Origin: Tubulanus polymorphus
Taxonomy: Eukaryota > Animalia > Nemertea
Length of the DNA: 64,000 bases
NCBI RefSeq assembly: GCF_964204645.1
Contig: NC_134029.1
Span: forward strand, 4,340,001-4,404,000
Direction: 5' to 3'
Shown in pieces: positions 1-62,630 of this stretch. The position numbers and the translations under genes were made by a program. Within the stretch, counting starts at the first letter, position 1. Every line of letters begins with the position of its first letter. Below the pieces are notes generated by a model. It did not search any database and was not told where the DNA came from. It worked only from the letters and a program-made list of their open reading frames with translations.

Positions 1-74
1 GTACACAAGTCAGTTGCTTAGTTCAGTAAAAAGACATGTCTTATTTAAGCTTTTGTGGTTTTGAATATTTTCAG

Positions 75-1164
75 TTGAATGTGATAAGGAATATGATAAT
101 GAATACTATTTTACCGCACGTGGTAGAGGTCAAAAAAGTCTTGGTAGAATCGAAAAGTCCACGCGTGTGGTTTGTAAGACATCATGCTCTGATGATGAGA
201 AGTGTGCAGCTTATATGGTATACACTGTACCACATGATGAAAGTAAAACGGAATATTGCGCCAAATACCGAAAAGTGCAGAAGGCTTATCTCCTGCGTAA
301 ATCAAATACGCAATATGAAAGTGTTATTATTGGAACAAAATGTCAAGAAGGTTAGTACATATAGAAATGATACAAATTACGCATGAAATCAAATATCAGT
401 TTAACTTCAAAATGATACCCAATCTTATTTGCAGGAAAGTCGCAACCGAAAATCATCCAATTGTCCGTAAGTTTATCAACAAAGAAAATGATAGGTGTTA
501 ACATATGAACTTGATCGTTAAACAAGATAAAAAATTTAATGCAGATGATACGTTCTTGCAGACAGCGCCATGTCGTTGTACTGGTGGCAGAAGTCTTGTT
601 CACTTTATCAAAATAAAAGAACGTTATCATTAGCTTTTTATTGTGTTTTAGAAACGAAGCGATGAAGAGGGAAGTGATGAAGATTCTGTTCCTCGCCGTA
701 AGTTGTTTCTATGCCACATATTGTTTTAAACTCCCGATTGTGTCCATCCAAAATATTATGATCAGATTGTATTGATTCTCTCTATTTTCAGTTGATTGCG
801 GAGTACCTAAGAAAAACTATTATATCGCAAAAGATGAAATGGCGCAATTAGGACATGTGGAGAAAGGTATGACAGAATGCGCTGAAGAATGTCTTCCAGA
901 TCACCAGTGCGCTGCAATAATGATATATACAGTTCCCGCCGATGATAAAGAATACTGCATGAAATTCAAACAGGCGAATAAAGTTTATCCATTGAGCGCC
1001 TCGAAAGGAAAATATACAAGCGCTTCAGTTATCGTCAAATGTGGTGATGGTAAGAATGATTTATCAATTAGGCGGAACCGTTTACATTGACATGTTCTTA
1101 TAGTAATTGGATTTTTGCTGTTTTTGTAATTGCAGCTCAAGAAGGCCCGGAAATTGTGGAATAG
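75..1164 (+). CDS. PAN/apple-domain repeat protein, 3' part (5' end outside window). Exons about 75-350, 435-466, 652-697, 792-1049, 1136-1164
   Basis: Two paralogous phase 1-1 exons each encode a 6-Cys module with the PAN pattern C..CxxxCxxxxxCxA..Y..C..C (CKTSCSDDEKCAAY; CAEECLPDHQCAAI). GT-AG sites splice in frame through two micro-exons (GKSQPKIIQLS; KRSDEEGSDEDSVPR). TAG at 1162-1164; AATAAA near 1569. Confidence 0.7.
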
Positions 1165-1650: not shown

Positions 1651-3746
1651 TCAAAATGAAACCCACTTCTTGTAGTTGAATTTGTTTGAGCCGGGATCTT
1701 CGCATTTTTTCGTGATGCAGACCATGTGTTTTAAAGCAGTAGGATTATCTGTAATAAAGATGACGCATCCATACATTGAAATTCAATTCAAATGTTCTAT
1801 GGCTATAGATACTTTGAATGTAAAAATAACTAGGCCAGTAGAAATTTCGAAGCAAACAAAAATTGATTTACTTTGCCATTCTGTGTCTTGACAGTAAGCT
1901 TGACGAATGTTCACGATATCGAAATAACTTGATGAAGGTTTTTGGTTGTACATAGCGACAATATCAGGCTCCTTTTCGCCGAGTTCGGTCAGTTTTGTGT
2001 TGACTTTCTCAACGATATTTTCCTTTAGGACAAAATTGTTCTTCGTGTAAATTCTCAAAGCGGACATTATGTTATACGGTGTCTTGAAGTAGAAGTTGTC
2101 GTCTGGGAACTTTGCCAACAGTTTTTGAGCTCCGCTGCCTACAATATGATTGGGTATTAAGATTCTAAAGGAGATGAAGACTCACCTTCACAGAAATAAT
2201 TGCCACCGTTTTTCCATTAGTGTTTCACGCAGAGTACGGTGTTTATATAACTGATAAAACGTTAGAATATGTCACCAAAACGGGATCCTACTAATGAGTT
2301 AGATGCGTAAAAGTTATGAACAATGAATTTACGTACAATTTACCCAACCCTTCATGCTCGTTTCCACAAATGTATCTCTTATCGGTCTATTAGTCTGTTT
2401 CATCAGTCCAAGTCGTTTGAACATAGCGCTGTTGAAGCCATCCTGGTCTCTTAGTAAATCACACGGGCCTTTGTAGGTGGACGTCAGACGTATTTCGTTA
2501 AATCTACTGCCGGCATTTCCACTGTAATACGACCCACATAAGGTACTGAAAATAAATTTATTCGAGAAAATGAATTTGGGAAATTGATTGCACATATTGG
2601 TTCAAATCCCTTTAATCTATCTGTTGATTTTAATCTTTATTTTTCGTCAGGAAAAATTGTCAAAAGACATTCCGATAACTAATCCTGTTTTAGGTTGCCT
2701 TGAAAAACTTATTGCTTAGTACTGTCTACAATAAATAATGATATAAATCATGTCATATTAATGATCAACAAAGATATTTTGGATTTGAATATATTGATAA
2801 TTGAATTGAATTGACTGGCAAACAGTCTAGCCCCGATATACTGATGCCGTAGTGCACCTCTCAAAAATTACTAAAATTTACCAAAAATAAGATTAGAGTT
2901 ATGGAATATCGGTATGGAATATATGGAATATATTTGATAACAAATGAATGCCAAAATTCGCAGTTATAATTGTCTACTTGCACAGAAGCCCTTGAATAAA
3001 GCATATTTACTAATTATCAATGTATGTAAACATTATTGTAGGCCATTATTGTAGGACGGTTTTTTACGTCGAAGTACTAACCCTTTCAATTTGAATGTGA
3101 TGAAATTGTTACCCGGAGTTCGCGCTTCATCGTTTTTCGGTATGAATCCGATGCAGGGTTTGTTGCTGCCCTTGATTTTACCGATTATGTTTTTGAAACC
3201 ATTCAATCGATCTTGTAAATCGTCCCGATCCTTTTTCGCTGAATAAGTAATCATTCAATCACTTTTAATCATAAGACAATCGTAGAGGAAAGCCATCATA
3301 AATGAAATGACGATTTTTTTGTTAATGCTTACATAAATCTTCGTCAACGACATACTCAATTCGAGAGGCATCACCCCAAAGTTTTTGATTGGCATCAGGA
3401 TTATAGCTTCCAGAAACCTATGAATATCATTCCAATTTATTCTACTTCTTTATGCAATTCAGCGAGAGCAAAAATTAAAGATGAATTAACGGCTTAGAAC
3501 CGATACAAAGATGCCGTCAAAATACTGATGAATTGTGACCAAATATATATATATTACTATTACGTAAAACAGAAGCCTAGGGCTGTACAAAAAAGCAAGA
3601 ATTCGTCATGTTTGAGGAAGAAAAAGGCTTACTCCACAATGTCCACCAAGCGCAGAATACCGATTATTATGATCATTTGAAAATACCTGATAAATGCAGA
3701 ACAGAGCGAGCACGGCGGCGAAAACGTGGACAGATTCCATCTTCAT
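1651..3746 (-). CDS. Secreted astacin-fold pseudo-protease, copy A (6 exons, intact)
   Basis: Spliced reading: MKMESVHVFAAVLALFCIYQ | VSGSYNPDANQKLWGDASRIEYVVDEDL | SKKDRDDL...PCIGFIPK...FITFKLK | GTLCGSYYSG...GPC...FNSAMFKRLGLMKQTNRPIRDTFV...WVN | CSGAQKLL...TPYNIMSALRIY...FDIVNIRQAYCQ | NNPTALKHMVC...WVSF*. Collinear with astacin (M12A) motifs; all introns GT-AG with consistent phases. Confidence 0.8.
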
Positions 3747-4229
3747 CCATCGAATGATTTCAACCACGGAAATCTACATCTTTTATGCAAATCGCACCCC
3801 AATACTTAATACCCGTGCTTCACCAGCTTATGATTCGTGAATTGCTAAATATAATCCAGTTAGTCTAGCATTTATTTTCAAACCGAATAACACGAGGCCC
3901 TTATTGATACTTTAAGTTATTATCGCAAACTCGGCGAAACAATCTGTCGATGTTAATTTTATTTCGTGGTGAGTTCGTGGCATACTAGTTGAGGTGATTT
4001 CCATTTACTAAGGGTTAATTATTAGTAATTTGCCGAAAAAACAGTTATATCCTCAACCTTCCTATAGAATGTTTTCGATATGAATCCTATCGCTGGCGAT
4101 GAATGAATACGAAATCACATTCACTTATGATACAATCGATGAGGAAAATCATCTCCGTAAATACGATATATACAATATCATATAACATACAACAAATGAG
4201 AACAACAATTATAGTTTTCTATTTTCTTT

Positions 4230-4619
4230 TCAACGACATACTCAATACGAGAGGCGTTGATTGGCATCAGGTTTATAACCAGAAATCTGATTGATAATAT
4301 AGTATACGGCATTGGATCAGCATGGTAGAAAAACTCATTGATGAAACTAAAAAGATGTTTCAACTCAAGATAATACGTGAAACATCAAATGATAAAAAAA
4401 AATCTTGCAAAAATTACTCGAACTGTTTTGGAAAAAAAGCATTCAAACAAAAGATAAAGGAGAAAAACATTAAATGACAAAAACATATAGGCCCTAGATT
4501 GTTTAGAGGTTGGAATAGACCACATGCCTTCATGGTACTAGGTTATCATGTGAAAATACCTGATGAATGCAAAACAGAGCGAGCACGGCGGCGAGAACGT
4601 GGAAAGATTCCATCTTCAT
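4230..4619 (-). pseudogene. Truncated pseudo-astacin copy D (signal-peptide exon plus internally deleted exon 2)
   Basis: 4560-4619 matches exon 1 of copies A/B/C. About 4230-4290 matches exon 2 but lacks the KLWG segment. No exon 3-6 homology seen between it and copy A. Confidence 0.7.
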
Positions 4620-7164
4620 CTATCGAATGATTTCAACCACAGAAAAATCTTCATCTTTTATGCAAATCGGGCCGTAACAATTGTAACTTTAATAATTACG
4701 ATTAGAAACGATTTTCAATTAAAATAAATCACAAGTGCTTTGAATCACAATACATGTACACGCCGAACAAAGATTACATTCAATAAATCGGCCAATCTAA
4801 TTTCTATCAAACAATGCAGCACCAGGCCCTTTTGGAGACCTGTGGTCACTTTTTAACATATCAAACCAGAGCGCGAAGAATAGAAGCAGCTTAATCCTAT
4901 ATACATCGATATTTACTCTAATAATATTACAATATTGCAAAATCGGGTTAAGCTCGTTTCAATCGATTAAACACTACTATAACACCAGGCTCTTGTTTGG
5001 GGGAAAGCATTCAGCTATTCCGAGTAAAGTCGTTTAAGCCTTTGAAAATCTTATCAAGTGATACAAATCAGGGAAATTCAGGTTTCAGCTTTTTCACAGA
5101 AAACCTTTTTCATTACATTCTTCCAAATTATTGTCGTTATGCTCATTATTTCCCCCTTTCCACGCAGTTGATCCCCAAAAGTCAGTAAAAGCTTAGCAAG
5201 GCTACTAAACTACTTAACTGATTCCTACCAAATTATCTCGGATTTTGCTTTTAACCCAATAACCACAGATTTCAACTATACTGACCTCTTCGGTTCGGCC
5301 CCAGGGGCATGAAGTAATTTGTATAGGATTGTATAAGTTTTATCAAAAATACGTATGTATATTTGGTTTTATGAATATTGCATTGCTACCTGCCTGCCTA
5401 GGGTCTATAAAAGTATGGAATATATTGGTCAAGAGGAGATTGAAAACCACTTTTAGAGTGTTGTTGTTGTATGGTAAATGGTCAATACAGATGATGTCGG
5501 TTTGTTTATTTTACGTACCGATCATTAGATCGGTAGGTTACCCCTTCGTCAGCATTCTTATCGGTGTATAAAACAAACCGAGAAATGTCACCATGACATA
5601 TGATAGCGTCCTGGTAAAGTTTCAGAATGCCGCACTCTGGATTAAGAGATCGAATACTGTTCTGTTCGATATTGTCTAGTTCCACGACGTATCTGTACTG
5701 CAACATTGTTATCAATGTCTAGAATAACAAGTCTAGTTCACGTATCTTTTTATTTCTAAAATGAAATAAAGGATTCAATGTTTAATTATTTTCTTCGTCT
5801 TACTTTAAACTTTAATGTTCGCCAGTACCAATGCAGGGCTATTTGATTATACAGAAAATACCGCTAATGGATTCCACATTCTAAGTGTTATCTAATGAAT
5901 CGTCAAATGTATATAGGCCTGTGTGTATAGTATCTTCTGAGGCCTATCTAATATTTCGTAGCGTTGGAGAACTAAAAAGAACTAAAATTAAATTATCTCG
6001 TTGAGCTCAGATTTACATTTACAACACATATCTTATTTCGGCTACAAAAATATTTCAGATAGTTTCCATGTCCGTCAGTGCCATCATTCGGTTCGAATTC
6101 AAATGAAAAAGAACTTGGTTTTCACCCCAACAACTAAGAAATCGCCGTTTTGGGTTATGAGTCCGATACACGTCATTTCAAGTTAACTGTTATTGGATAG
6201 TCTCACATCGCACTGGTTCGAACTCTTATCGAAAAAAATGTGTAGTGTCCAAATGTGACATAACACACCGACGTAGTTGTACCAGACATATCAGGTTCGA
6301 ACCCGACGATAAAAATTATATTCATGTCTATTCAACTCCCAAAGGTTAGCATATCTATGATGCTACTAGGCAGAAACCAGTTATCTCTGCTTTGCAGCTA
6401 AGTTTGTATATACGATTGGAATCATATGAGTGGAATGATCATCACTATACAAGATCTACAAAAACCTTCTCACGCTCTCCCAAAACTTTCAAAATTTGGA
6501 AAATCCTATCTATATCAATTTATCATCCGGGTTGAGAATGATATCTAGGTTTTGACCTTATTTGGTTATTTCAGCTAAACTAAATACATAATTGATAACT
6601 GGATATTTTCAGTTTGGTGTTGGCCAACAGAATAATAATGATTTATAAATTTGAGAAATTATTTCAACGCAGGGCCGTACAAAGCGTTTTAACTTTTTTT
6701 GGAGGCGGAGGGGCGTAGGGCAGAAGATCCTGAAAAAGGGCAGAAATATTGGACATAACAAGATTATTCGCAAAAAGCGCTTTTCCAAAGTTTCTGCGGC
6801 AACTGCCCCCTCCCCCTGCACCCCACTAGAAACAGCCCTCATATAATGTGAAATGACCGCATCCTCACATGGTACTTTCACACGATAAAGAATTTTTTTC
6901 TATAAAAATTTTACATATCTTTAGAAAATGCTGCAGATTTTGTCTCTGTTACAATATAATCGTTCAACTAGATACGCATCAAAATCAGATTAAAGTCCAT
7001 TTTCAAAATTACATCAGATTTAAGTTCATTTAAAATCACAGCAGGTAAAAAGATCGTAAGTTTTAAAGATCTTGTTTACGTAGGTCATGATCCATTTAAC
7101 CGCGCCTCTTGGCGAATCTCTATGCGCGACACACTCTATGTCTAACTATGGAAGACCTCAGACG

Positions 7165-7245
7165 ACATACGAGATATGAGATTTAACATACGAGATATGA
7201 GATGCAACATACGAGATACGACATATGACATACGAGATACGACTT
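7165..7245. repeat. About 21-bp tandem repeat (ACATACGAGATAYGA core), about 4 units
   Basis: acatacgagatatgagattta / acatacgagatatgagatgca / acatacgagatacgacatatg / acatacgagatacgac read directly. Confidence 0.8.
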
Positions 7246-7734
7246 ATTTACAGTACGGGTGTCCGTCCGCTAGCGCCACCGCAGTGTATATTTTTCAACA
7301 TCTACTCGGCGTTGCGGCGTATACTACGACACGTGCGCAGGCAGTGGCGTATACATTTACTATGAATATCAATATGCGAAAAACGTTTCATTTGAAACGA
7401 AAAACATTTTAAAATATTCGATCAACCACTCCCGGGGACCGGCTTCTCGCTGTGACGTCAGTGGGCGGCCACTCTTAGTGTGAGACACCGATATGGTCCG
7501 GTGATTCGAGTTGGCTCCAAATACAGGGCTACAGCCCCTAAATCCACCAAAAACGCCTCAAATTCCATTTTTGAGTGTACAAAAATCCCTCAAAAAGAGT
7601 TAGCTAGCCATGGCCCCTTCAAATTGGTGGTCACTAAGAATTGCGCCTAGTCAAGGGTTTAAACTTCGCGTTCGATCGAGGGTTTTCGATGAAGAATGAA
7701 AGATGTATGTATATTACGAATAATAATATGATAT

Positions 7735-8563
7735 ATTTATTTCCACTAAATATTACAATATATCATTATACATTATAAAAAATGAAGTTGAATGAAATAG
7801 TTTAATATTAAGCAGGGGAGACTTGAAGAAGCCAGTTAAGACTTATGTCAAACGTACAAGTCCCCCAGCACGCAAAGAACCACACTCACACACGCACCCA
7901 CGCACGCACGCACACATAATAAAGTGATAGATGACAGAAACCATAATGATGAAAAACGATAAATATTACAGACACTGAGTTATTGATTGATTAGATAATG
8001 TTTTAATTTGACCTTGAATGATTGGGTACTGGTAATATGTTTCAAATATTCAGGTAGATTATTCCAAACTGTAGGACAAGATACTTTAACAGAGAATTTC
8101 ACTTTATTGGTTTTAGATCTATCGATGCGAAATGAGTTATTATTTCGAGTGGCATAACTGTGGAAATTGGTACCTTTTTGAAAATAGGAATTAAAAGAAC
8201 TAGGTAACTCTGTGTTGATGTAGTTATGCATGAATAAGGATAACTGAAATTTGGTAATATCCTTGAATTTAAGAATTTTGAGTTTTTTAAAGATAAGCTC
8301 GGTATGTTCAAGATAGGGGGACTTGTTGATAATTCTAATGGCGCGCTTTTGCAATATGATCAACGGCTTAAGGATAGTATCATAATTGCTAGCCCAAATG
8401 AGATTACAATATTGAAGGTATGGATAAACAAGGCTATAGTATAGTGAAGACAACAATTTTGAGGGAAATATCTTTTTCAATCGATTTAAAATTCCAAGAC
8501 TTCTGGCAACTTTGTTTGAAACATGTTTTATGTGGACATCCCACTTCAATTTTTCGTCTATAA
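7735..8563 (-). mobile_element. 5'-truncated non-LTR retrotransposon (CR1/L2-like), C-terminal ORF2 plus 3' UTR
   Basis: ORF 7980-8549 (LKWDVHIKHVSNKVARSLGIL...LYYSLVYPYLQYCNLIW...LQKRAIRII...HSYATR...WNNLP...FKVKLKHYL) is the typical post-RT thumb region of CR1/L2-clade LINEs. Followed by a (TG)n-like tract, a GGGGAC..CTCCCC stem-loop and AATAAA. Confidence 0.85.
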
Positions 8564-8991
8564 CGTACCGAGATAACTATATCCTTGACTTCTGAACACG
8601 AATATTGAGTGCTAGCGTATCACCACGAGCGGACGAAAGAATAACATACGCGATTAAAAACTCCCTGAATTCCATCTTTGTATTCCAAAGATTATGATGC
8701 GCGATGGACAGATTTGTTGTGAGGTGTCGCAGTCGCACAATTTCAGTTAAATTGAAATTAAAGAAGACTTTTTAGCAATCCATCGATACAGTGTAAAATG
8801 GATAAACAATGGTTTATTGTGACTGCACAGTGGTTTCACCAGTCGTGTTAAGACTCATGTGTTCAAACGATTAAGCGAATTATCCACCAAAAAACCGATG
8901 ACACACTAAAATGACTTTGGGCTGGTTGCTAGTCGATTTCTGCGCCACCTACATTCGCCAAGTCAAGCTATGGTAAGCGTATATTTTGGTG

Positions 8992-9490
8992 TACGAGTGT
9001 TCACTTTCAGACGGGTGGGGCTGAAGTGGCCGATCTCGTGATATATTCAACTATGTAACGAACTGCCTGTGATTGAACTGCAACCACTTTCAACGAAACT
9101 CAGAACATGTTCTTGATCTCGTGATATCTTGAACTCTGTAAAGAACTACCTGTAAAATGACTTCATTCGTTTCTTACACTTGGTGAAATCATCATTTCCG
9201 TTGTTTCCATACATCAAGGAAAATCAAGTTGATGAAACTCAAAACACGTAGTTGGGAATAACCGCAACAAAGTAGAAATACACTTCATGAAACTTTCTAG
9301 ATTAACTCTAGATGATACAAACCTATCTACTGATAACGCGGTTTTGATTTCTTTGAAATAGTTCCGAAATATAAATCTGCGTTGTGTTTGAAATTGGTAG
9401 ATTAGACATGAAAAAAATAAACTACCTCGTTAATCTAACTGAATTTATTTTCAAATTCAAATTTCGTACAATCAAATGGTAAATTGCGGA
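8992..9490 (+). repeat. Duplicated 3' end/UTR of the PAN gene (paralogous to about 1240-1645)
   Basis: Shared strings such as gttcactttcagacgg, tcaagttgatgaaactcaaaac, gataacgcggttttgattt and ttaatctaactgaatttattttc occur in the same order. Confidence 0.85.
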
Positions 9491-9497
9491 AGATCAT

Positions 9498-11571
9498 TTA
9501 GAATGCAACCCAGTCCTTGTAGTTGAATTTGTCTGAGCCGGGATCTTCGCAGTCTTTCTTGATGCAGACCATGTGATTTAGAGCAGTAGGATTATCTGTG
9601 ATAAAATATGAAATATCCATTCACTTCCATCAATACAAACGTTTTACAATACATTCAACTATGGCTATTGATACTATGTATATAGAAATTATCTCGACCA
9701 GTAAACATTTCGAAGATAGTGCAAAAAATTTACTTTGCCATTCTTTGTCTTGACAGTAAGCTTGACGAATGTTCACGATATCGAAATAACTTGATGAAGG
9801 TTTTTGTCTGTACATAGCGACAATATCAGGCTCCTTTTCGCCGAGTTCGGTCAGTTTTGTGTTGACTTTCTCAACGATATTTTCCTTTAGGACAAAATTC
9901 TTCTTCGTGTAAACTCTCAAAGCGGACATTATGTTATACGGAGTATTGAAGTAAAAGCTGTCGTCTGGGAACTTCGCCATCAGTTTTTGAGCTCCGCTAC
10001 CTACGTAATGGTAGATTAGTTTTTATATTTTGAAGATCATCTGTCATATGCAAGAAAGATCGTTAGGCCTAACAGGTTTAATGTCTATCACTATGCCTAC
10101 AATATGGTAGGCTAATAGGTAAAATTTCAAATGATATGTTTTTTATTAGAATTTCGCCAGTAAGGTATTTTTATGGATTATGAGGCTATTCCTTGATATT
10201 TCGGAGACCAACTGATAACGAAACGACGTTAGGCTTAAGTGTAATGCTTATCACTATGCAACCAGTAAATTTCGTTCCTGCGTATGCTTGAGATAGAAGT
10301 TATGCAATACATCTAAAATTACGTACAATTTACCCAGCCCTTCATGCTCGTGTCAACAAATGTATCCCGTATCGGTCTATTAGTCTGTTTCATCAGTCCA
10401 AGTCGTTTGAACATAGCGCTGTTGAAGCCATCCTGGTCTTTCAGTAAATTACACGAGCCTTTGTAGGTGGACGTGAGACGAATTTCGTTAAATCTACTGC
10501 CGGCATTTCCACTGTAATACGACCCACAGTAGGTACTGAAAATGGAGGAATGAATCTAAGTTCCTTTGATCTGTATGTTGACGTTAATGGAAGATTTTTT
10601 TTGTAAATGCAAAATCTAAGACATTTTGTTTTAAGTCTATCAATGATATAGAAAACAAAAATACTAACCTTGACATTTTAAATGTGATGAAACTGTTGTT
10701 TGGAGTCCGCTTTTCAGATTTCAGCCTGAAACCGATGCAAGATTTCGTGCTGTCCTGTATTTTACCGATTAGCTTTTTGAAACGGTTTAATCGCCTTTTC
10801 AGATCGGTCACATTCGCTTCCGCTAGAAGGTAAAACACGGGATCATATTTCAATCAAATGACAGGAAGGAAGGAATATCCCCAAAATATATACGATATCA
10901 TTCTATAGGAACAATGAATGCAAACAACTATACATTTTCTTCAAACACTTACAGAATTCACCCTCAAGGATATACTCAACTCGAGAGGCATCACCCCAAA
11001 GTTTTTGTTTGTGATCAGGATTATAGCTTTCAGAAACCTATAAATATAGTTGCACTTCATTCTACTTCTTTACATCATTACGCAAATTCAGCGAGAGCAA
11101 AAATTAGAAATCACTTATTTTTTGAATATATCAACACAGATGGCGCTTTGAAATACTAAGTTCATTTCGAAAGGCTCAGAACATTACTAAAACTTATATA
11201 ATCTATTCAATTTATCATATCTATAACTAGAAATGATATATTTTATTAAACAAAACAATAGCTTAGATCTGAATATATTGAAATGAATAAAAAAGAAAAG
11301 AATTCGTCATGTAGGGGAGGAAAAAAGGTTACTCCAAACATATCTGAAAGCTTAGCCATTTTGAAAAAAATCGGAAATCTAAAGCACGCATTCAAAACAA
11401 ACAAATGCTGGAAGAAGAAACACAATGACAAACATAGAATTTGTCTCGAGGTAGAAATAGTCCATGCCCTCATGAATATGGTACCAGAATAATATGATCA
11501 TTTGAAAATACCTGATAAATGCAGAACAGAGCGAGCACGGCGGCGAGAACGTGGACAGATTCCATCTTCAT
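9498..11571 (-). CDS. Secreted astacin-fold pseudo-protease, copy B (6 exons, intact)
   Basis: Same exon structure as copies A and C. ATG at 11571, TAA at 9498. ORFs 10584-10853 and 9630-9980 cover exons 3 and 5. Exon 4 (about 10330-10535) has FNSAMFKRLGLMKQTNRPIRD. Confidence 0.85.
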
Positions 11572-12024
11572 CTATCGAATGATTTCAACTACGAAGATCT
11601 TCACCTTTTATGCAAATCGCATACTACATGCCTACTTAATGCTAAGCCGTACTTCAACAGATTATTTTGTGCGAATTGCTAAATATAAATCAGTTAATCC
11701 TGCATTTCTTGTCAAACTGAATAACACCAGGCTCTTTTTGATACTTAAAGGTATTATTGCAACCCCGGTGAAACAAGTAGGCCTCTTTCGTCCAATTCAT
11801 TAAATAAACGTATTTTCGAATTCGTCGTTATTCATCATAATTTCTGTTCAGCGCATGGCTTCATGCCACAACAAAACTAAATTAGTACATACGGAATCCA
11901 TTTTGAATGAATCAACAGAAATTGACAGATTGAGAATCATTACACACGAGCATAATCGAATAGAATCTTACAACAAATGATTGTTCATCAACTCTAAAAA
12001 CGGACATTCTGTAATACACGGGGT

Positions 12025-12427
12025 ACAGAAGTAAAAGTTGTCATATGGGAACTTCGCCAACAGTTTTCGAGCTCCGCTGCCTACAATATAATCGGTTACT
12101 TCGCGCGATGTTTAAGGAGGGCACCCTGCAGAAGTAATTGTAACTTTGTCCAGTGTTTCACGCAGAGTACGGTGTTTATATGACTGACGAAATTTTAGAT
12201 TATTTCACCAAAACGGCCTTTGTTAATGATTTAGATACGTAGAAGTTATATACGCTAAACTTACGTACAATTTACACAACCCTTCATGCTCGTTTCAACA
12301 AAGGTATCTCGTATAGGTCTGTTAGTCTGTTTCATCATTCGTTTGAACATAGCGCTGTTGAAGCCATCCTGGTCTTTCAGTAAATTACACGGGCCTTTGT
12401 AGGTGGATGTGGACAGATTCCACCATC
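12025..12427 (-). pseudogene. Deleted pseudo-astacin copy E (start of exon 1 fused to mid exon 4; truncated exon 5)
   Basis: Minus strand reads ...atggtggaatctgtccac|atccacctacaaaggc..., joining exon 1 to exon 4 out of frame. The LG codons are missing (FKRMMKQ) and exon 5 homology stops after about 60 nt. Confidence 0.8.
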
Positions 12428-12429
12428 TA

Positions 12430-13245
12430 TTGAATGATTTCAACTACGGGAATTTATCTTTTATGCAAATCGCACCCTAAAACTTGTTACTTAAATAATT
12501 AGGATTCGAAACGATTTTCAATTCAATAAATATCAAGTGCTTTCGAACCACAATACATGCACACGGCGAACAACGATTTCACTGAGACAAATTTAAAAAC
12601 AAAATAAATCGGTAATTTTGATTTCTATCAAACAATGCAACACCAGGTCCTTTTGGAGACCCGGAATTTCTTTTTACCAAATCAAACCAGAGAGTGAATA
12701 AATTCAGAATACATCGATATTTACCCTAATGATATTACAATATTGAAAAATCGGGTTAAGCCCGTTTCAATCGATTAAACACTACTATAACACCAGGCTC
12801 TTGTTTGGGGGAAAGCATTCAGCTATTCCCGCAAATAATGTCGGTTAAGCCTTTGAAAGATCTTATCAATAAATACAAATCCTCGAATGCATTTAGCTCA
12901 ACAGCCGGCCATATTTCTACCATCTATATGTATATAATACCAAATATACATAAATCGTATTTTGATACGTATATCGTTAAGAGATACACTTTGCTTTCCT
13001 CCTTATAATTGTTGTTAGGGTTTTCTGCTTTTTCACAGAATAACTAATGTTGCTTTCCGTCGGAATAAAAATGATGATGATAATCACTATTAATCATGAT
13101 CATTAGTAATGATAATGATAATAGTAATCATTTATGATTTCATTTCCCCTTTTCAAGCACCCCAAAAGTCAATTAAAAACCTAAGGCTCCTAAACTGCTA
13201 GATGGATTTCTACCCCATCTTCTAGGATTTTACTTTAAGCCCAAT
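12430..13245. repeat. Direct duplication of upstream/promoter region, paralogous to about 4620-5270
   Basis: Shared strings such as gtttcaatcgattaaacactactataacaccaggctcttgtttgggggaaagcattcagctattcc at about 4956 and about 12764. Confidence 0.85.
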
Positions 13246-13628
13246 ACCTAATAAAGCAAACCGATAGGTGTCAACGTGATGGCTCCATGTAAACAATTTG
13301 AGGCCAAGCTCCATAATTACACGTATTGTGACAATTATCTTTAGTGGCTTGGATCATGGACGTATAAATTTTGAAAAAATTCGGACATCTAAAGCAAGCA
13401 TTCAAAACAAACAAGGGCCTGGTGTTAGTATGTGTTCAAAAGATGGCAATGAGCTTAACCGATTTAGACCCGGATCGATGTAGATCTAGATTCATTCTGA
13501 ATGTGCTAGCCTAGTTTTTAAGGTTTTCCGGTCTTTAAAAGGGCCGGGTGTTACATTGTTCGATAGAAAATCACTTTCTGTTGATCCAATAATCGTTATT
13601 CAGAAGCATAAGTATGAGGGTCCGATTC

Positions 13629-13667
13629 GCATAAAAGAAGTTGAAATTATTTGAAATCATTCGATAG
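13629..13667 (+). promoter_or_regulatory. Putative core promoter of the pseudo-astacin genes (CATAAAA TATA-like box plus TCATTC initiator-like motif)
   Basis: gcataaaag about 28 nt upstream of tcattc, which lies just before the ATG. The same arrangement is conserved in copies A, B, D and E. Confidence 0.5.
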
Positions 13668-15903
13668 ATGAAGATGGAATCTGTCCACGTTTTCGCCGCC
13701 GTGCTCGCTCTGTTCTGCGTTTATCAGGTATTTTCAAATGATTATATTATTCTGGTACCGTAGCCACTAGGGCATGGACTATTTCCACCTTGTGACAAAT
13801 TCTATGTGCTTGTCTTTCCTCCTCCAGCATTTGTTTGTTTTGAATGCTTGCATGCTTGCTTGCTTGCGATTTTTTTCAAAATGGCTAAGCATTCGGATAT
13901 GTTTGGAGTAACCCTTTCTCCTTCTCAACGAGTTCTTGCATTTTATTAATTCTAATATATTCAGATCTAAGCTATTGTTTTTTTTTCTATATAATATATG
14001 ATTTCTAAGTATAAATATTATTAGTTAAATAAATTATATAAATTTCAGTAATGTTCTGTGCATTTTGAAATGAACTTAGTATTTCAAACCGCCATCCGTT
14101 CTGATATATTCAAAAATAAAGTGATCTCTACTTTTTGCTCTCGCTGAATTTGCGTGATGATGATAAGTAAAATTAAGTGCAACTATATTCATGTTTAATG
14201 GCAAGTTAAACAAATTATACAAGTTTCACTAATTATCAAAGCATTTCGAAATGACCTATGTATTTCTAAACAGTCAATTCCGTGCTGATGTATTGAAAAA
14301 TGAATGACCTGTAATTTGCGTAATGATGATAAGAATTAGAATAAAGTGCAACTATATATTCATAGGTTTCTGGCTATAATCCTGATGCCAGACAGAAGCT
14401 GTGGGGCGATGCCTCTCGAGTTGAGTATATCCTTGAGGGTGAATTCTGTAAGTGTTTGAAGAAAATGTATAGTTGTTTGCATTCATTGGTTTCTGTAAAA
14501 TGATATCGTATATATTTTGGGGATATTCCTTCCTTCCTGTCATTTGATTGAAATATGATCCCGTGTTTTACCTTCTAGCGGAAGCGAATGTGACCGATCT
14601 GAAAAGGCGATTAAACGGTTTCAAAAAGCTAATCGGTAAAATACAGGACAGCACGAAATCTTGCATCGGTTTCAGGCCGAAATCTGAAAAGCGGACTCCA
14701 AAAAACAGTTTCATCACATTTAAAATGTCAAGGTTAGTATTTTTGTTTTCTATATCATAGATAGACTTATAACAAAATGTCTTAGATTTTGCATTCAAAA
14801 AAATCTTCCATTAACGTCAACATACAGATCAAAGGAACTTAGATTCAATCCTCCATTTTCAGTACCTACTGTGGGTCGTATTACAGTGGAAATGCCGGCA
14901 GTAGATTTAACGAAATTCGTCTCACGTCCACCTACAAAGGCCCGTGTAATTTACTGAAAGACCAGGATGGCTTCAACAGCGCTATGTTCAAACGACTTGG
15001 ACTGATGAAACAGACTAATAGACCGATACGGGATACATTTGTTGACACGAGCATGAAGGGCTGGGTAAATTGTACGTAATTTTAGATGTATTGCATAACG
15101 TCTATCTCAAGCATACGCAGGAACGAAATTTACTGGTTGCATAGTGATAAGCATTTCACCTAAGCCTAACGTCGTTTCGTTATCAGTTGGTCTCCGAAAT
15201 ATCAAGGAATAGCCTCATAATCCATAAAAATACCTTATTGGCGAAAGTCTAATAAAAAAACATATCATTTGAAATTTTACCTATTAACCTACCATATTGT
15301 AGGCATAGTGATAGACATTAAACCTGTTAGGCCTAACGATCTTTCTTGCATATGACAGATGATCTTCAAAATATAAAAACTAATCTACCATTACGTAGGT
15401 AGCGGAGCTCAAAAACTGATGGCGAAGTTCCCAGACGACAGCTTTTACTTCAATACTCCGTATAACATAATGTCCGCTTTGAGAGTTTACACGAAGAAGA
15501 ATTTTGTCCTAAAGGAAAATATCGTTGAGAAAGTCAACACAAAACTGACCGAACTCGGCGAAAAGGAGCCTGATATTGTCGCTATGTACAGACAAAAACC
15601 TTCATCAAGTTATTTCGATATCGTGAACATTCGTCAAGCTTACTGTCAAGACAAAGAATGGCAAAGTAAATTTTTTGCACTATCTTCGAAATGTTTACTG
15701 GTCGAGATAATTTCTATATACATAGTATCAATAGCCATAGTTGAATGTATTGTAAAACGTTTGTTTTGATGGTTAAGTGAATGGATATTTCATATTTTAT
15801 CACAGATAATCCTACTGCTCTAAATCACATGGTCTGCATCATGGAAGACTGCGAAGATCCTGGCTCAGACAAATTCAACTACAAGGACTGGGTTGCATTC
15901 TAA
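13668..15903 (+). CDS. Secreted astacin-fold pseudo-protease, copy C (exons 13668-13727, 14366-14447, 14579-14732, 14863-15071, 15399-15665, 15806-15903; 289 aa)
   Basis: Six GT-AG exons sum to 870 nt with no internal stop: signal peptide MKMESVHVFAAVLALFCVYQVSG, then LWGDASRVEYILEGEFS...SCIGFRPK..FITF..YCGSY..GPC..SAMFKRLGLMKQTNRPIRD..PYNIMSAL..DIVNIRQAYC, then a short Cys-containing tail. Confidence 0.85.
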
Positions 15904-26668: not shown

Positions 26669-26738
26669 GACAAAGAAATGTCAATGCGAATGGGACCAAA
26701 TAACTTAACAATTTCCTTTTGATTTTCAGCGCCGTAAT

Positions 26739-29700
26739 ATGGATGATAAAAGAGTTGTCGATTATTTCGTCGTAGCTGGTCTGCCAGCGAATCCGCTTCC
26801 TCTTGAAGAATTCTCCAACGAAGCGATCTTGAAACCGACGCATAAACAGGATCCGATTACGGACGTGATCGTCATTATCAAAAACGCCGGCGAGTCGCCG
26901 CCGAAAGGATTCACGTGCATCGAAAAAACACCGACGGGCTATCCATCGGATTTAAACCATGGCAGTATACGCGCGCCCGAAATGTATCTCTGTTATAAAC
27001 GAGGACGCAACAAACCACCCCTCACAGACATCGGGTAAATACTTCTTTATCAATAGTAGCGTTGAAATAAACGCAGCAATGATGATAATGATCTTTTAAA
27101 GATCATCATTACCGCGTTTGTTTCAATAGGTCCATTCAAAGTTTAATATTATTAAACATTGAATGGACCTCAATCATTGACGATGCTGTGCCTTCACACT
27201 GTGTCTTAAATTCAGCTGTTATCACTCGTCCAGTTTAGACACAACACTGTGATTCGCAGGAAATAAGAGCATTAAGTTTCTATTCATGCACGGAAAAATG
27301 ATCTGTTTTCAAATGGACCTGGCTAGGTCTTTTTGGTCGATGGATCAGACTCAATTTGAATATGCGATGCCAAGTCGTGGGTTCTTACCCCGTACATTAA
27401 TGCAGTGTCAAGCATATCCTCATTTATCTGGCTCCTGATGACTCATGAGCGCTAAGTAGTTGCTTGGATGATTCTTCTATGGGACAAATATGATGCCGGG
27501 GTAATAATACCAATGACATTGATCGCATTCATTGTGGATAAATGGGCATTTGGAATACTGTTGGGATCATTAGCTCATGAAACAAACAAAATCATTACTT
27601 AACTTGCATTAGAAAAGCCTTCGACTTTTTAATGAAATGATAATGAAAGTGAAACTTCCCTGGAACATCTTATGTATGAAAGAGGCATGATCCTTCGCTA
27701 TATTGCGATTCTATTGTCGATGTTTGTTTTTGCAGAGTTCTGTACGAAGGTAAAGAACGGGTTATGTCCGGCTGCGAGGTCGTTTACGTGACACCTCAAG
27801 GTCGTCCGGCGAACGTGAATAATTCTAATTCGCAGCGTATATACATCACGTACCGGCGTGCTAATGAGAATGCTGCCTCTGACACGCTCGCTGTCACTGA
27901 AATCTGCATTATTCTGGCGAATAAGGTAATTGGGAAATTCAGGATCAGATGGTTTCAGTCAGATCAAGCAAGTTCTGTACAATGTAGTTCTCTTTCTGTA
28001 GTTCTGAGAATTGATTATGAAAAATTAAGAGTTAAAATTAAAAAGTTATTTGAAATGTGGGGAAAATATGGACAATTAAAGGACAGGCTTTTGCGGCAAA
28101 AGATAATCGAAGTGTTGTTCATAGATATCCGCAAATGTTTCAATGGGCCGAATCAGGGATCACGGGTTTAAAGAGTTTAGAAAATTATCGGAACCACAAA
28201 AAGATTCTGGGATAAAATGCAGGAGTTGCAAACAAGCTGCTAGAGCATCATTTGCGTCCACTGCAGTATTTTACTGGCAAAAAAACTTTGCTCTATTCGA
28301 GTTAAAACATCGGAAATGAACTAATTATATATCTAGTGACAAAGTTGACCAAATGTAACGATTGATGTGGTACTGGGTCCTATTTTAGAATTGCTCTCAT
28401 AATGACGAAAAAGATCTGTTTTCACAGCAGAGAGTCTATTGAATGCATTTACCGGTACCGGTACCTATATCCTACAGCGAACAATCTCTTTTGATTTTTA
28501 GGGTGAAATGGCACCGCACGCTTTTTGCCAGATAAATAAGAATTTAAACAGAGGAATGGTAAGATTTGAAACTCTTTATTATATAAGATAGAGATTTTAA
28601 ACCAGAAAAAAGAATTATGTCAATGCCAGAAGAAATTATGGTAAAACTCGATATATTTTTCAGGTTGGTTCTGACGTTTTTTTATGCTACAAAAAATCGA
28701 TGGTTAAAACTAATACGATCGCTTATAATCCAGGTATGTCAAATATGGTGGTTCACACGTTTCAAAATAGACTGTTCTAATTCATTTATTTATGTACAGT
28801 AAACTTGCTTAAAAGTTGGATCGAAGTCGGATAATTGGGAAATAATTTCTAGGTCCAGAGTTTTCCGCTCAATTTCCCTTATAAAATCTCTAAGCTGGTT
28901 CTTATCAATCGGATTCTCGCCTTAGTCGGACAAATATTTTATCCCCATAAGTCTGAAATATAGGAAATTATATTCCCCAAGACAGACGCGTCATTGATTT
29001 AGTCAAATAACTCTTCTTACTTAACGCGAGTACTTTCTAAAACGAACTCTACGTATTTATGTTTCAGGATGCTTGGGTCGTTATCCGCTGGAAGACCATG
29101 CCGATTTCCCATTGCCCGAATCTGTGCCATTGTTTTGTTTGCCGATGGGTTCGACTCTGGAATGTTGGCCGCAGCAAACGCAGCACCCGCTGCCCGTGTT
29201 CTCGACGTTCATTCTGACCGGTTCCTCAGTCGAAAAGGTTGATATCAATTTGAATCCCAATTTTGTTATCCCTTAACAGTGCGTCTACACTGTAGTGCAG
29301 TGTATGAATCAGTGTTTGACTCAGTTATGAAGTTTAAAAAAAGTTTTCAAATATTTAAGCTTTATGATTGAGTTTGAATGGTCGTCATTGAAAGTACAAC
29401 GTAAAGTAACCGATAGCAATTATCAAACCAAAATTTGACTTAGACCTTTTCGTGAGACTTAACCCGTGGTCTCATCAATCTGAGATCATCTTGCTAGAAA
29501 ATTCTTCGCCAGCCTCTGCCATTAACGTATCTGTGTGCTAGCTTGATTGAGCAATACAAAAATCATTAAATAACGTTTGTATTTTTCGAAGGTTTACGGC
29601 GCCGCGGTCACGTTCTACGAAGAATACGAACAGGATAAACTAACCGATCTGCAGCAGCGGTTACTCGGACTGAAGGAGCCAAAGTCGTCGTCGAAACAGC

Positions 29701-32700
29701 ATTCCGTACACGTGAATAAAAGCATCTGTTTATTATCGCATTGGCCGTTCTTTGACGAGTTCAAAATGTTTCTGAGTTATTTATACCGGATTTCTATCAT
29801 CGGTCCTCATAATGTACCGATGGAAAGGTAAGATTCATGTGACATGGTTCCCACAATACGGGGGAAGCTGACATGATTGTCGGTATATTTCCCCTGTTTG
29901 GAAACATTTTGGAATTACGATTGATTTTGCTCTAATCCGGGAAATGTTTTGAAAATTCATCTCACACTTCACGTATCAACATGGTCTGGGATGTCAATTG
30001 CTTGTCCAAGGAAATCTGTCTTTTGCAATTTTCCTTGAATCGACCGATGATTACTAAAATGTGAAATTAACTCGAGTATGAGGGTATGTTCACTTTTAGG
30101 CAGGCCCCATTTCCATTCCGGAAAATCGAAAAATCACCCTTAAAGTACTTGGGAAAAACTTAGAATTTTGAATTCATGCAATGACTGGGAACAATGACAT
30201 GATGTACAGTAGACTTCGTATGCTTCAAATGGGCCAATCAATTTTCTCCAGGGCCAGTTGATGCTCTTTCATTCGGAGTGACAATGAGTTGTAATGCATT
30301 AGAGTAGGATAAGAGTAGGAGAGTTTGACATCTTTGGTCTCGCAGGGCGCATGATAATCTGAGGCAATCGGAGTCTACTGTAGACGCAATCATCAAATTG
30401 AACAAATTAACCTTTTGTCAAAAGTTTTGAGGATGAATTGCTGAAGTACATAGTATTTAATGATTGTCCCCTCTAGTTGAGTATTCTCAATTATTGTTTC
30501 ATGAATTTCAGACACATCAGTCATTTTATGTTCAGCGTTCCATTCCCATCTCCGAAACGACCTCGGATTTTAGTTGAGTTAAATGACGAAGCAATCTGTC
30601 TGAACCAACCCGAGGAAACTCCATTACCAAAAAGGTATGTACATTATGTATTTCAAATAAATTAGTTTTTGGCCATCATTTCCATTGAGACTGTAGTAAG
30701 TTTTGTGACTCGTAAATGGAAATCAGAATTTGCATATTCTTGGAGCTACCCTTCATTAAAACTGGCTCTAATATGCTTCATTTTAATCTGTACTACAAAC
30801 TTGTATTTGTGTTTCAGCGGTGCTTCATTTATAACCCTGGTTCAGAATCTGGGACCGGAGAATTGTCTGGATTTGTTACTGTATGTGATACTCGAGCACA
30901 AAATCCTCATTCATTCCCTTCGTCCAGCGGTATTAACAAGTGTCGCTGAAGCTGTGTCTACAGTAAGTATATCATTACTTCACTCCACTTATCCAAGTTG
31001 ATTAAGGCGTCATTAAACAAAACTGTTGTCTGTACCCACCACTTCCGATGATCAACAGACAACAGTCCTCCTGACAAAAACTGATTATACGGACTTTTTG
31101 CCAGGTCTCCTATCTGGACAAAAGTCATTTCTATTTGAAACTAAATTACAGTTTTTTACCTAACGCCGCTGTCATCAGTCGCCATGCATTGAAAATCAGA
31201 TCATTCACACTTCACCTCATCAAATGGTGAATATCTGAATACAGAGTGAGAAATTTCTATTGATGCATTGACTTATGTGCAATTTTCTCTGATGTTTTTG
31301 AATTCATTGTCGGTATCATAAATCGTGACTCTTTTAATTTCAGCTCATATTTCCATTCCATTGGCAATGTCCATATATCCCTCTATGTCCACTTGGTTTG
31401 TCAGATGTACTCAACGCTCCCTGTCCATATATTGTGGGTATGTACTCTGTGCTGATTGATTCATCAACTGTAGATTCTGATTTAGAAAAATGGCACTGAT
31501 CGAATCTTCCATCTTACCAGGTGTTGATTCGCAGTATTTCGATCTTTACGATCCACCACCAGATGTCACTTGCGTCGATCTCGATACAAACACGATAACG
31601 CCGTAAGTTATCTCGTCGGAGATAGTCAAAATGTCGAAAATACGTCCTGTTTACAGTAGCTAGTATTGTTTATGTTTCTATTTGTTTTGAAGGCCTGAAG
31701 ATAAGAAAACGAACTATAAGCTATTACCAAAGGTAAGTTATAGTTGAAGGTTCTTCTCTTAGTGATTTTAACAATTTTTCGGAATATCAGATTGACATGG
31801 TGTAATGTCAAATTCATACGTCGATGAGGGTAACATTGTCAACTTGGAAAAAGCAAAAGTCAATTTCAAGTCAGATGCTCAAAAGTTGATCAGTAGTGAC
31901 AATTAAAACTGGTATATTTCATCTGATGGTTTTTTATACTCAAGATTTGACTACTCGAATCATTGTAGAATGCTTAAAAAGCATAAAAAGATTACTCAGA
32001 AGTTCGTTTTTATTGAAAGATCTCTCGTCTCACATCTAAAATCAACGCATTTTCAGAAACCGTTGCGCATCCTGCAGAACACGTTGAACCGTATATACGA
32101 ACAAATATTCGAACAAGGTTCAAACGCCAGCACTCCTGAAGTGACGCTGGATACAGCTCCGATTGATCCACACTTCCGCAAGAAACGTAGAAAGGTGAAT
32201 GAAAATAATTAGGTGTTTGCTGAATATAAACTCATCTAAAAATAGGCGCTCAATTTCTGAAAAATGATTTTTTAATTTCAGTTGTTGCTGGAGATGGAGA
32301 TTCAAGAAGCATTTTTACGCTTTATGGGCTGTCTGCTGAAAGGATATAAAAACTATTTATTACCAATCACCAGTGCCCCAACTATCGGCACTACAGATGC
32401 AAGCTCTCTATTTGATATGCAAGGTTTGTCCGAAATCACCAGATCTCAATCATGATTTTTGCAATTTTAGGGCCACAAATGCTGCTGGTTTTGAAAAATC
32501 ATGAAAATGTGTGAAAAATTCATGGAGCGAGTCTATGAAAATATTTCGTTTTAATCAATCTGTCCAGTAATCTGAAAAATCTTGATATTTTGTTGTGAAA
32601 AAATGTGTAAAAAAACCTACCCCTAATATGGAAAGGATGTGAAAAATGTGAAAATTCCTGAATTCATCAATCTTGCCCCTATTTAAGCATTGAATAAAAG

Positions 32701-44700: not shown

Positions 44701-45007
44701 CACAATCCACAGTTGATGATTTAACCACTTACTTTCTGATACAAATTCAACCGGTCATCTTATGATTTAAGACTGATCTAGTCACATCTAGTGCCCAGCA
44801 CTTTCTATCGGTGGTTTACGTTGTTGATCAACTTCAAGTTGTTATTCGATGTTTATTTCAGATGCGTTTGATCGCGAGTACAGACACGCCTACCATCAGA
44901 TGAATTTCCGCGATCGCAACAAGCTGCAGCATAACGATAAACCGCCTAGCAACGGTGTCGTGTGGTGTCGAAAAATATTCCGTGAATTAGAACTCTTAAC
45001 TCAGTAA
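26739..45007 (+). CDS. DENND4: DENN domain-containing protein 4 / Crag-like Rab GEF (MABP, uDENN-cDENN-dDENN, PPR repeats, long Ser-rich region, conserved C-terminus), about 30 coding exons
   Basis: Spliceable exons include [15 protein letters not shown]...[160 protein letters not shown]...[13 protein letters not shown] (TAA 45005-45007). Confidence 0.95.
30264..30382. mobile_element. Tc1/mariner-type MITE (TA-CAGTAGACT termini); related elements at about 36547-36678 and 61380-61558
   Basis: tacagtagacttcg ... cggagtctactgta inverted termini with TA flanks. Confidence 0.65.
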
Positions 45008-47562: not shown

Positions 47563-48252
47563 CTTCCCATTCTATCATTGGTCGGAAGTATATCTTCTAT
47601 ATTGAGTCTGTTGTTTGCTGTTTTCGTTCACTTGTTCCTGCCACAACTGGGAACTTTTCCAGGACTTCTCTTAGTGAATTTAAGCTTCGCCCTTATCGTT
47701 TCTCACGTCCTGATAATAGCATCGGTGAACATACATTCGCTGCGTGTCTGCGAGATTTTGGTTATTCTCAAACACTACATGTGGCTCGTTGTTTTCACCT
47801 CTATGAACGCCGTCGGAATCAATATGGCTTACACATTCAACAAGAAGTTCCAACTCGAAACCGCTACGACCAACATCAAACGCTGATTATTTGCAAATTA
47901 TGCCTTTATTTGGTGTATTCCCCTCGTGGCTTTGGTCCCTTGCTTATACCTCCATCTCAGTCCGGACACACAACTGAAGTCAACCGTCTACGGAAATTTG
48001 AAAAGTTGTTGGATCAAGAATTCCCAATTCCAGATTTATGGGTTTATACTTCCTGTCGCCTAATCGGTTTCATTCAATTTATTTATGTTTGGGTTGATCG
48101 TTCGGGGTATCCGCCTTTCGATAAAATCCATCAATAGGTGGCAGCCTTCGGAACAGTATGGCGCGAAGAAGGAACTGCCAATATTCTTACGCGTATTTGC
48201 TGCCATCGGACTGACTTGGTTAATAGGGTTCATTGCTAGTTTAGTCGGAAAC
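47563..48252 (+). pseudogene. Partial duplicate of the GPCR 7TM region
   Basis: Near-identical to about 50452-51141, but with premature stops (TGA 47884-47886, TAA 48061-48063) and lacking the ectodomain and the last TM helix. Confidence 0.9.
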
Positions 48253-48574
48253 TATGAAATGACAAGTTATGTCAGAAACACGGAAAGTAGTTGATAATAT
48301 CTTAACTTTCGCTGGTGTTATGTTTCAAACTGATGGGAAATCTAAAATCTGACTGTAACATTAGAATATTCCTTATGGCAGTTTCATTAATCGTTTTGAA
48401 AATTCGATACCCACATCTATAATTGGAAAAGTTATATCTATCTAATTAAACCATTCATTTGTCAGACGAATGCTAATGAATGCATTTTACCAACATTTGA
48501 TTGGTTACATGTTAGCTATATACGCAATTTGATCGCGGGAAAGGCAGTAGATCGGCCTAGCGCATCACACAAAC

Positions 48575-61884: not shown

Positions 61885-62630
61885 ATGCTGTCTTACAGTA
61901 TTACGGAAATATCGAAGCTTATTTGTATCATCACGTTCGCTTTAATAGCTTTATTATGTAAAGGTAAATTAAATTTAGGACATTTCGAAAATGTATTTTG
62001 ATATTTGAACAAGTCTATTCATCGATTTGAGGATCTATACGTTTTGATAGGTAATCCACAAGCACATACTCTTTCGCCGGAGTATTATTGTTATGAAGGG
62101 GTTTGTGTCGATGTCGTCAAGAAATGTCCCCCACTGGAATCAGTGAAGTGTCCTGGACTGTGTTTGGTAAGTCGTGTTCATACTTTCGAGCAAACTCATT
62201 ACTTTCTCTTTCAACATGGGAAAACCGTCCAGGTCTTCCGATTTCTTCGATTCATCATTTAGCGTCTGGTCCAAACGCTACCGAGTTAGACCATGGCTCT
62301 AAAACAAGCTGTTCAAATGTATTTGTTAAATTACAGAAATACTATTTCAAACTCAACGCCTCGGATGCATATGTGAAAAAATGCGCCAATAACGAAGGGG
62401 TGGATTCGTGTCCGGCTCAACAAACCGATTATGCTGCTACGTCAGAGGATATCCAGTCTATTTCAACGTCCATTGGTTCTGAGTATGAAATAATGAACGC
62501 GATGAAAATATGCTGTGTTGATGGAAAGAACTGCAATTCTGTGGAAAAACTCAATTCTTCGATAAGAAGTATCTTAATGTTTGTTTTGATAGGCTTGGGT
62601 TTTTCTGGACTTTCATTGAAGTTTTTCTGA
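61885..62630 (+). CDS. GPI-anchored Ly6/uPAR (three-finger) protein, copy 2; exons 61885-61963, about 62051-62166, about 62338-62630
   Basis: MLSYSITEISKLICIITFALIALLCK|GNPQAHTLSPEYYCYEGVCVDVVKKCPPLESVKCPGLCL|KYYFKLN...CCVDGKNCNS...hydrophobic tail; tandem paralog of copy 1. Confidence 0.8.

Follow-up and report, generated by a model that had tools for sequence, protein, structure and literature searches.

A candidate family of astacin pseudoenzymes with a replaced zinc-binding site in the nemertean Tubulanus polymorphus

By definition, astacins (family M12A) possess a zinc site and are secreted in zymogen form. In the active enzymes, the family Glu binds the N-terminus freed by propeptide removal (PMC9848320), and the basic residue of a GQR/K sequence accounts for the preference for acidic P1' residues (PMC3186203). 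Dead ADAMs, by contrast, are well studied, and the M12B pseudopeptidases comprise ADAM2, 7, 11, 18, 22, 23, 29 and 32 as well as UNC-71 of C. elegans (PMC11266112). As excerpted, the pseudopeptidase table of that review holds no astacin entry, and no account of an astacin devoid of catalytic activity appears in the excerpts of either this review or the astacin review (PMC9848320). Within the literature searched, which has most subscription journals outside it, we found neither a described M12A pseudoenzyme nor any work on the genes treated below. MEROPS has a category for non-peptidase M12A homologues, and some nematode astacins may be without the zinc motif. Here, we describe a family of astacin-like genes clustered in a 64,000-nucleotide stretch of DNA from the nemertean Tubulanus polymorphus (assembly GCF_964204645.1, contig NC_134029.1, positions 4,340,001 to 4,404,000, forward strand), referred to below as the window. 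An original prediction, made from the letters of the window alone, had proposed that the cluster encodes secreted astacin-fold pseudo-proteases with neither zinc site nor propeptide.

Judged from sequence, the genes constitute a real, expressed and lineage-restricted family of astacin pseudoenzymes in which the replaced active site is under selection, and a non-catalytic, functional astacin derivative is very probably the correct description of the product. The traits that mark a pseudometallopeptidase were found together: a fold family whose catalytic residues have been lost, and genes that are intact, expressed and constrained. Three intact copies, A, B and C, lie in the window. Two further paralogs are on other contigs, namely P0002 (XP_074657338.1, 291 aa, 71-74% identical to A/B/C) and, on a third contig, P0004 (XP_074656794.1, 149 aa, 41-43% identical). 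P0004 is the most divergent; it starts at a Met inside the motif and is probably a 5'-truncated gene model. In what follows, the four full-length proteins are A, B, C and P0002, the five paralogs include P0004, and residue numbers are those of copy C.

Sequence comparison identifies the family as an astacin (M12A) homologue by descent. An astacin profile of our own scored A, B, C and P0002 end to end at 26.7-30.3 bits; for each of these four proteins, none of 1000 shuffled sequences reached the score (the largest shuffle gave 9.1) and the reversed sequences scored below 0. P0004 obtained 7.2 bits. The profile consists of 34 of 107 metagenome astacin loci, the remaining 73 having been dropped for stops, short flanks or the lack of a Met-turn; its rows include near-duplicates and some that are probably bacterial, and they were chosen by the zinc motif, so that the motif columns are invariant by construction. 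The hhalign match to astacins stood at 94.9% over 196 columns, and P0002 passes the Pfam Astacin model (PF01400): it scores 25.1 bits where 22.5 are required, and the match spans positions 2-188 of the 189 in the profile. With P0002 as the query, the three feature matches shown by the ESM Atlas were astacin clusters (0.91-0.94), and its structure rows were astacins in 10 of 10 cases (TM 0.57-0.63, on a model with a predicted local distance difference test score, pLDDT, of only 0.61); the unnamed clusters queried with P0003, the RefSeq entry for copy B, gave a best value of 0.79, which is chance level. Of the 48 columns in which 70% or more of the sampled astacins agree, 22 are identical in the four full-length proteins, mostly in the scaffold. 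The collinear scaffold of the original prediction is thus well founded. Its claim that the four structural Cys are kept holds in so far as Cys76, 102, 127 and 251 align with the canonical four, the last with a one-column offset, but mature A, B and C contain three further Cys, or seven in all. An AlphaFold model made with astacin rows added, and circular to that extent, had BMP1, HCE-1, ZHE1 and astacin as its top matches (Z 8.4/8.3, root-mean-square deviation 4.4-4.7); the model agrees with these in the upper subdomain but is poor in the lower one, and the C-terminal tail has a pLDDT below 50. A homodimer prediction, tried because of the odd number of Cys, scored 0.02. In a tree, the astacin-derived family lies on a very long branch, with no sister astacin identified.

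As aligned, the family falls outside the active M12A peptidases in its zinc ligands, family Glu, Met-turn Met and propeptide. Positions 14978-15013 of copy C translate as SAMFKRLGLMKQ, letter for letter the motif that had been predicted, and this places Ser138, Ala139, Lys142, Lys148 and Gln149 at the His, catalytic Glu, His, His and family Glu positions, respectively. The register is ungapped and HMMER, MAFFT and hhalign concur on it, with a posterior of 0.7-1.0 from Lys142 onward and 0.6-0.7 at Ser138/Ala139. A, B, C and P0002 share S-A-x-x-K-x-x-G-x-x-K in place of HExxHxxGxxH. There is no HExxH in any of the five proteins, so that a shift of register could not rescue a zinc site, and the mature chain has a single His in A, C and P0002 and two in B; the supposed loss of the zinc His and the catalytic Glu was confirmed. 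R-P-I-R-D stands where astacins have R-P-D-R-D. At the Met-turn, the alignment reads S-A-L-(one inserted residue)-V/I-Y; here the prediction was right about the replacement of Met by Leu, but the site also contains the one-residue insertion and retains the Tyr ligand, Tyr199, in A, B, C and P0002, four of the five paralogs. Lys235 aligns with the Arg of GQR/K and is invariant in the five paralogs, as are the extra Cys169, Cys268 and Cys273, His265 and a C-terminal W-V-x-F.

The N-terminus also departs from that of a zymogen. On hydropathy and the -3/-1 rule, a predicted signal peptidase site lies directly before Tyr24 in 4/4 full-length proteins, and in all four the conserved Trp is residue 10 after this cut, the same spacing as from the R|NA or R|DA site in several of the astacins sampled. 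The hydrophobic leader runs into the domain with no room for a propeptide, and the FxGDI propeptide motif, down to its GDI, is absent from 5/5 proteins, in agreement with the propeptide-less protein that had been envisaged. The exchange of the family Glu for Gln would fit the loss of the zymogen step.

No part of the family is better conserved than the replaced segment, whose invariance reaches down to 43% identity. In blocks of the alignment of the four full-length proteins, 52 of 60 columns are invariant for residues 99-158 versus 24 of 60 for residues 40-98; among the five paralogs, 13 of 14 are invariant for residues 143-156 versus 43 of 132 downstream (p=1.5e-5, for bounds chosen after looking). 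The invariant residues of this segment include some that differ from active astacins, namely Arg143, Leu146, Met147, Gln149, Thr150, Asn151 and Ile154. The ratio of nonsynonymous to synonymous substitution rates (dN/dS) is 0.16-0.20 in exon 4 for A versus B/C (Fisher p=0.002 for A-C), and between A and a P0002-type contig, for which 11 of the 17 exon 4 differences are listed, 7 of those listed are silent, among them all 4 that fall within the motif segment. Synonymous divergence (dS) between A and C ranges from 0.055 in exon 5 to 0.45 in exons 2-3. Such unevenness hints at gene conversion between the three clustered copies, and most weight therefore rests with the paralogs on other contigs. 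The replacement residues have stayed the same even between paralogs that share only 43% identity, which points to a function gained at the old active site, and the selection on this segment argues for the non-catalytic role that the original prediction had assigned to the protein. Its basic former cleft was also borne out: the motif window has a charge of +4 versus -2 to -1 in 34/34 astacins. The domain as a whole is charged +8 to +14 versus an astacin median of -0.5 and maximum of +10, and mature A, B and C have isoelectric points (pI) of 9.1-9.3.

Self-comparison of the window revealed a cluster of related segments at 1.2-16 kb (Table 1). The three intact six-exon copies that had been reported proved to have open frames at their coordinates, and in these coordinate-built models 15/15 introns are bounded by GT..AG. 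At the protein level, identity is 96% between B and C, and 82-83% between A and either of them. Residues 3-290 of copy B are identical to RefSeq XP_074650341.1 (P0003), and the last 182 aa of copy A to XP_074650338.1, a 5'-truncated model; RefSeq labels these two entries, and those of P0002 and P0004, 'uncharacterized'. The RefSeq model of copy A begins at a small exon in intron 3, which is probably a mis-prediction, and the same intron contains a short high-copy repeat at 2755-2860, where contig cover is very deep. Of the broken copies, fragment D has also suffered a short deletion within the motif and a truncation of exon 5. Intron identities obtained by global alignment were inflated by gaps and were set aside.

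Table 1. Positions in the window of the astacin-like gene copies and of the sites discussed in the text
Feature	Position	Strand	Basis or remark
Copy A, intact gene, 291 aa	1651..3746	-	gene model; X4 contigs identical to A
Copy A, exons 1-3	3746-3687, 3417-3333, 3238-3082	-	
Copy A, exons 4-6	2545-2337, 2138-1872, 1748-1651	-	
Copy A, replaced zinc-binding motif	2395..2430	-	exon 4, offset as in C
Copy A, alternative first exon (3' end)	7080..7092	-	one X4 contig; GT donor follows
Fragment E, broken copy	4208..4619	-	exon 1 and degenerate exon 2 only
Copy B, intact gene, 290 aa	9498..11571	-	gene model; RefSeq identity
Copy B, exons 1-3	11571-11512, 11037-10953, 10822-10669	-	
Copy B, exons 4-6	10535-10327, 10000-9734, 9595-9498	-	
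Copy B, replaced zinc-binding motif	10385..10420	-	
Fragment D, broken copy	11990..12474	-	exon 1 start fused to mid exon 4 (large deletion)
Copy C, intact gene, 289 aa, inverted relative to B	13668..15903	+	gene model; X4 joints
Copy C, exons 1-3	13668-13727, 14366-14447, 14579-14732	+	
Copy C, exons 4-6	14863-15071, 15399-15665, 15806-15903	+	
Copy C, exon 1, hydrophobic signal-peptide-like segment	13668..13727	+	hydropathy, -3/-1 rule
Copy C, replaced zinc-binding motif	14978..15013	+	HMMER, MAFFT, hhalign register
Copy C, Met-turn equivalent, Ser194-Tyr199	15473..15490	+	alignment
Copy C, Lys235, astacin GQR/K (S1') position	15596..15598	+	alignment

Evidence of expression comes from contigs of the run X4. 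None of the runs is recorded as RNA; the X4 contigs are exon-only, whereas those of X1, X2 and X3 extend over introns, as expected of DNA. X4 contigs are joined at GT..AG sites that match introns 2, 3, 4 and 5 of C/B, two copies too similar for every joint to be assigned to one of them. Contigs identical to A are also present, including an A-specific one that joins exons 2 and 3, and a further spliced contig has short unmatched pieces that resemble P0002 by eye. Of the junctions that the original prediction proposed to check by RNA, those of introns 2-5 are accordingly supported, and splicing of intron 1 was not seen in X4; no X4 contig lies on exon 1 of A or C, and run X5 contributed no contigs, blanks that carry no weight. 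One contig of 224 nt (13 + 85 + 126, depth 8) carries 13 bases ending at 7080 that run into exons 2 and 3 of A, and so joins an alternative first exon to A exon 2 across a 3.66-kb intron, skipping the signal-peptide exon. An in-frame ATG stands 9 bases ahead of the donor, with another, out of frame, 7 bases further upstream, and the stretch of note here reaches upstream to ~7500; the product of this form would be signal-less or non-productive.

The number of paralogs given here is drawn from the window and from protein searches. The search for the same motif in related genomes that the original prediction called for brought to light the T. polymorphus paralogs on other contigs, which keep the motif, but no match from other species: word-indexed searches and a profile search of 1.84 billion representatives found no relatives outside T. 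polymorphus, in collections whose coverage of nemertean proteomes is unchecked.

Several results weigh against the reading favoured below, an astacin derivative that binds acidic partners without cleaving them. With regard to homology, the Pfam check succeeded for P0002 but missed P0003 (copy B), P0001 and P0004 as well as 8/8 single exons. A profile of bacterial astacins (105 of 120 loci), later replaced by the metagenome one, failed on the family with at most 2.2 bits, and neither exon 4 nor P0002 nor profile A4 had a match in sequence searches of the PDB. AlphaFold with only the rows of the family gave an unusable model with a pLDDT of 33, which rose to 54 once astacin rows were added; residues 146-185 have a pLDDT below 50, and the shape of the cleft is therefore not given by this model. 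The Tyr ligand, retained elsewhere, is absent in P0004. With regard to selection, dN/dS taken over the whole gene comes to 0.55-0.67 in comparisons of A, B and C, and the constraint on exons 2-3 is not significant (p=0.14). Furthermore, the conservation contrast for residues 143-156 is inflated, both by the structural conservation of this segment in active astacins and by its post hoc bounds and the inclusion of P0004, which was found by profile. In the sole transcript with a 5' exon for A, the exon that encodes the signal peptide is left out.

As for what the protein does, the balance tips slightly towards its being secreted already mature and zinc-free, with a cationic cleft that binds acidic partners without cleaving them. 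Signal peptidase would cut just before Tyr24, where astacins gain their mature N-terminus, so that what is secreted would already be competent to act, without having passed through a zymogen form. In the former place of the zinc, the cleft would have a positively charged lining made up of the Lys or Arg at the third His position, Arg143 and Lys235. Such a surface could hold Asp/Glu-rich or sulfated extracellular molecules, which may then be shielded or cross-linked in a secretion, e.g. a mucus, tube or proboscis product. A more specific version, which we put forward tentatively and consider rather doubtful, is that this is the first family of M12A pseudoenzymes in which a new binding site has become fixed, an always-on substrate trap in mucus, tube or venom that was amplified by repeated duplication; zinc, catalysis and zymogen control would have been lost together, basic side chains would have filled the metal site, and the pocket for acidic P1' residues would have been kept.

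Among the other explanations, the one that survives best, although we judge it unlikely, is a regulator or decoy, either a rival of active astacins for their substrates or a sink for metalloprotease inhibitors, those of the worm itself or of its prey; a protein of this type may help or restrain the active enzymes of the same secretion. The retained scaffold and S1' Lys would suit it, active relatives are often regulated by pseudoenzymes (PMC11266112), and other nemerteans have astacins in their mucus or proboscis (PMC7460313, PMC11768458). However, a site filled with Lys/Arg would bear little resemblance to the zinc site to which inhibitors bind, the window showed no gene for an active astacin, and the M12A toxin candidates in the excerpted PMC9415933 come from three other species and not from T. 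polymorphus.

Unlikely too, and ranked next, is a cationic structural or membrane-active protein, in which the fold would serve as a stable, disulfide-bonded carrier and the overall charge would act, for instance in an antimicrobial product or as part of a glue or tube, with the odd Cys perhaps providing cross-links. A mature pI above 9, the seven Cys of A, B and C, and the invariance of Cys169, His265, Cys268, Cys273 and W-V-x-F in the five paralogs are compatible with this. Tubulanus builds tubes. The pattern of conservation speaks against it, since this peaks at the old active-site segment and does not follow overall charge, while exons 2-3 vary freely.

We regard it as very unlikely that the protein is still an enzyme or a metal binder, with a new metal site formed by His265, Cys268, Cys273 and Cys169 or with a metal-free Lys/Arg-Tyr chemistry. 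The invariance of these four residues and the odd Cys count could be read this way, as could the replaced motif itself, which is strongly conserved in the manner of active sites. But the aligned cleft offers no acidic or His general base, the C-terminal tail is unmodelled, and Cys of secreted proteins are usually engaged in disulfides.

Least credible of all is that the copies are decaying, functionless duplicates whose likeness stems from recent duplication and gene conversion: the two broken copies, the whole-gene dN/dS, the range of dS between A and C (suggesting conversion) and the restriction of relatives to one species are outweighed by four full-length open reading frames, spliced transcripts, a replaced motif kept by paralogs on other contigs at 71-74% and 41-43% identity, and the predominance of silent changes in exon 4.

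The remainder of the window holds several other features. At 30-1090 (+), two similar Cys-rich exons of ~90 aa resemble PAN/apple-type repeats by eye, with no Pfam match; these were considered as part of copy A and rejected, as their opposite orientation indicates a separate gene converging on A. A 198-aa frame at 7980-8576 (-) looks by eye like the C-terminal end of a long interspersed nuclear element (LINE)-type ORF2 and has no Pfam match. An ordinary multi-exon DENND4-like gene, with uDENN and DENN matches and weak MABP and PPR ones, occupies ~26700-45000 (+). At 48724-51306 (+) lies a single-exon gene for an 860-aa secretin/adhesion-type G-protein-coupled receptor with a long Cys-rich ectodomain (Pfam 7tm_2), and upstream of it, at 47542-48300 (+), is a frameshifted partial duplicate of its seven-transmembrane part that is 96% identical. 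Overlapping frames of 277 and 122 aa at 52773-53941 (+) include a stretch that is kinase-like by eye, with no Pfam match, and 55664-58000 (+) is probably a Dcp2 decapping enzyme gene (weak DCP2 box A match). Also, tandem small Cys-rich genes at 60523-61107 and 62002-62630 (+) are ~80% identical, with no relevant Pfam match; both end in CC..CN and a hydrophobic tail, and by eye are like glycosylphosphatidylinositol-anchored Ly6/three-finger proteins.

Compared with the M12A astacins (crayfish astacin, BMP1 and the hatching enzymes; PMC9848320), the T. polymorphus proteins have a collinear domain of ~220 aa and share Trp10, the four canonical Cys, the motif Gly, R-P-x-R-D, the basic S1' residue, the Ser and Tyr of the Met-turn, an S-x-x-D C-terminal helix and a predicted signal peptide. 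They are unlike these enzymes in that the zinc His and catalytic Glu are gone, the family Glu is Gln, the Met-turn has Leu for Met and a one-residue insertion, and there is no propeptide or FxGDI; additionally, they have three extra Cys and a 35-aa C-terminal extension and are strongly basic. Astacin-like metalloproteinases have been reported in the mucus or proboscis of Amphiporus and Kulikovia (PMC7460313, PMC11768458). These belong to the same phylum and fold family and are secreted, and by analogy they make a role in secretions plausible for the family described here. Degenerate astacins elsewhere are suggested by an ESM Atlas cluster of 62 members, mostly from nematodes, 31% of which have PF01400, and by tarantula digestive fluid, in which 3 of 12 astacin-like transcripts are without the motif and/or Cys (PMC5553785); the tarantula transcripts are perhaps fragments, and no sequence relation of the family to either set was detected.

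Toxin surveys that proceed by similarity to known proteases would miss proteins such as these or call them active. In this family, every catalytic and latency element has been lost save the Tyr ligand in four of the five paralogs, which makes it a small, single-domain and testable case of a protease cleft turning into a binding site. The closest working parallel is that of the ADAM pseudopeptidases, in which a metzincin fold with replaced zinc ligands and general base is kept for non-catalytic roles. Those proteins sit in the membrane, are built of several domains including a prodomain, and typically retain the Met of the Met-turn (PMC11266112), whereas the family in T. polymorphus consists of a single M12A domain, predicted to be soluble, from which Met and prodomain have been lost as well.

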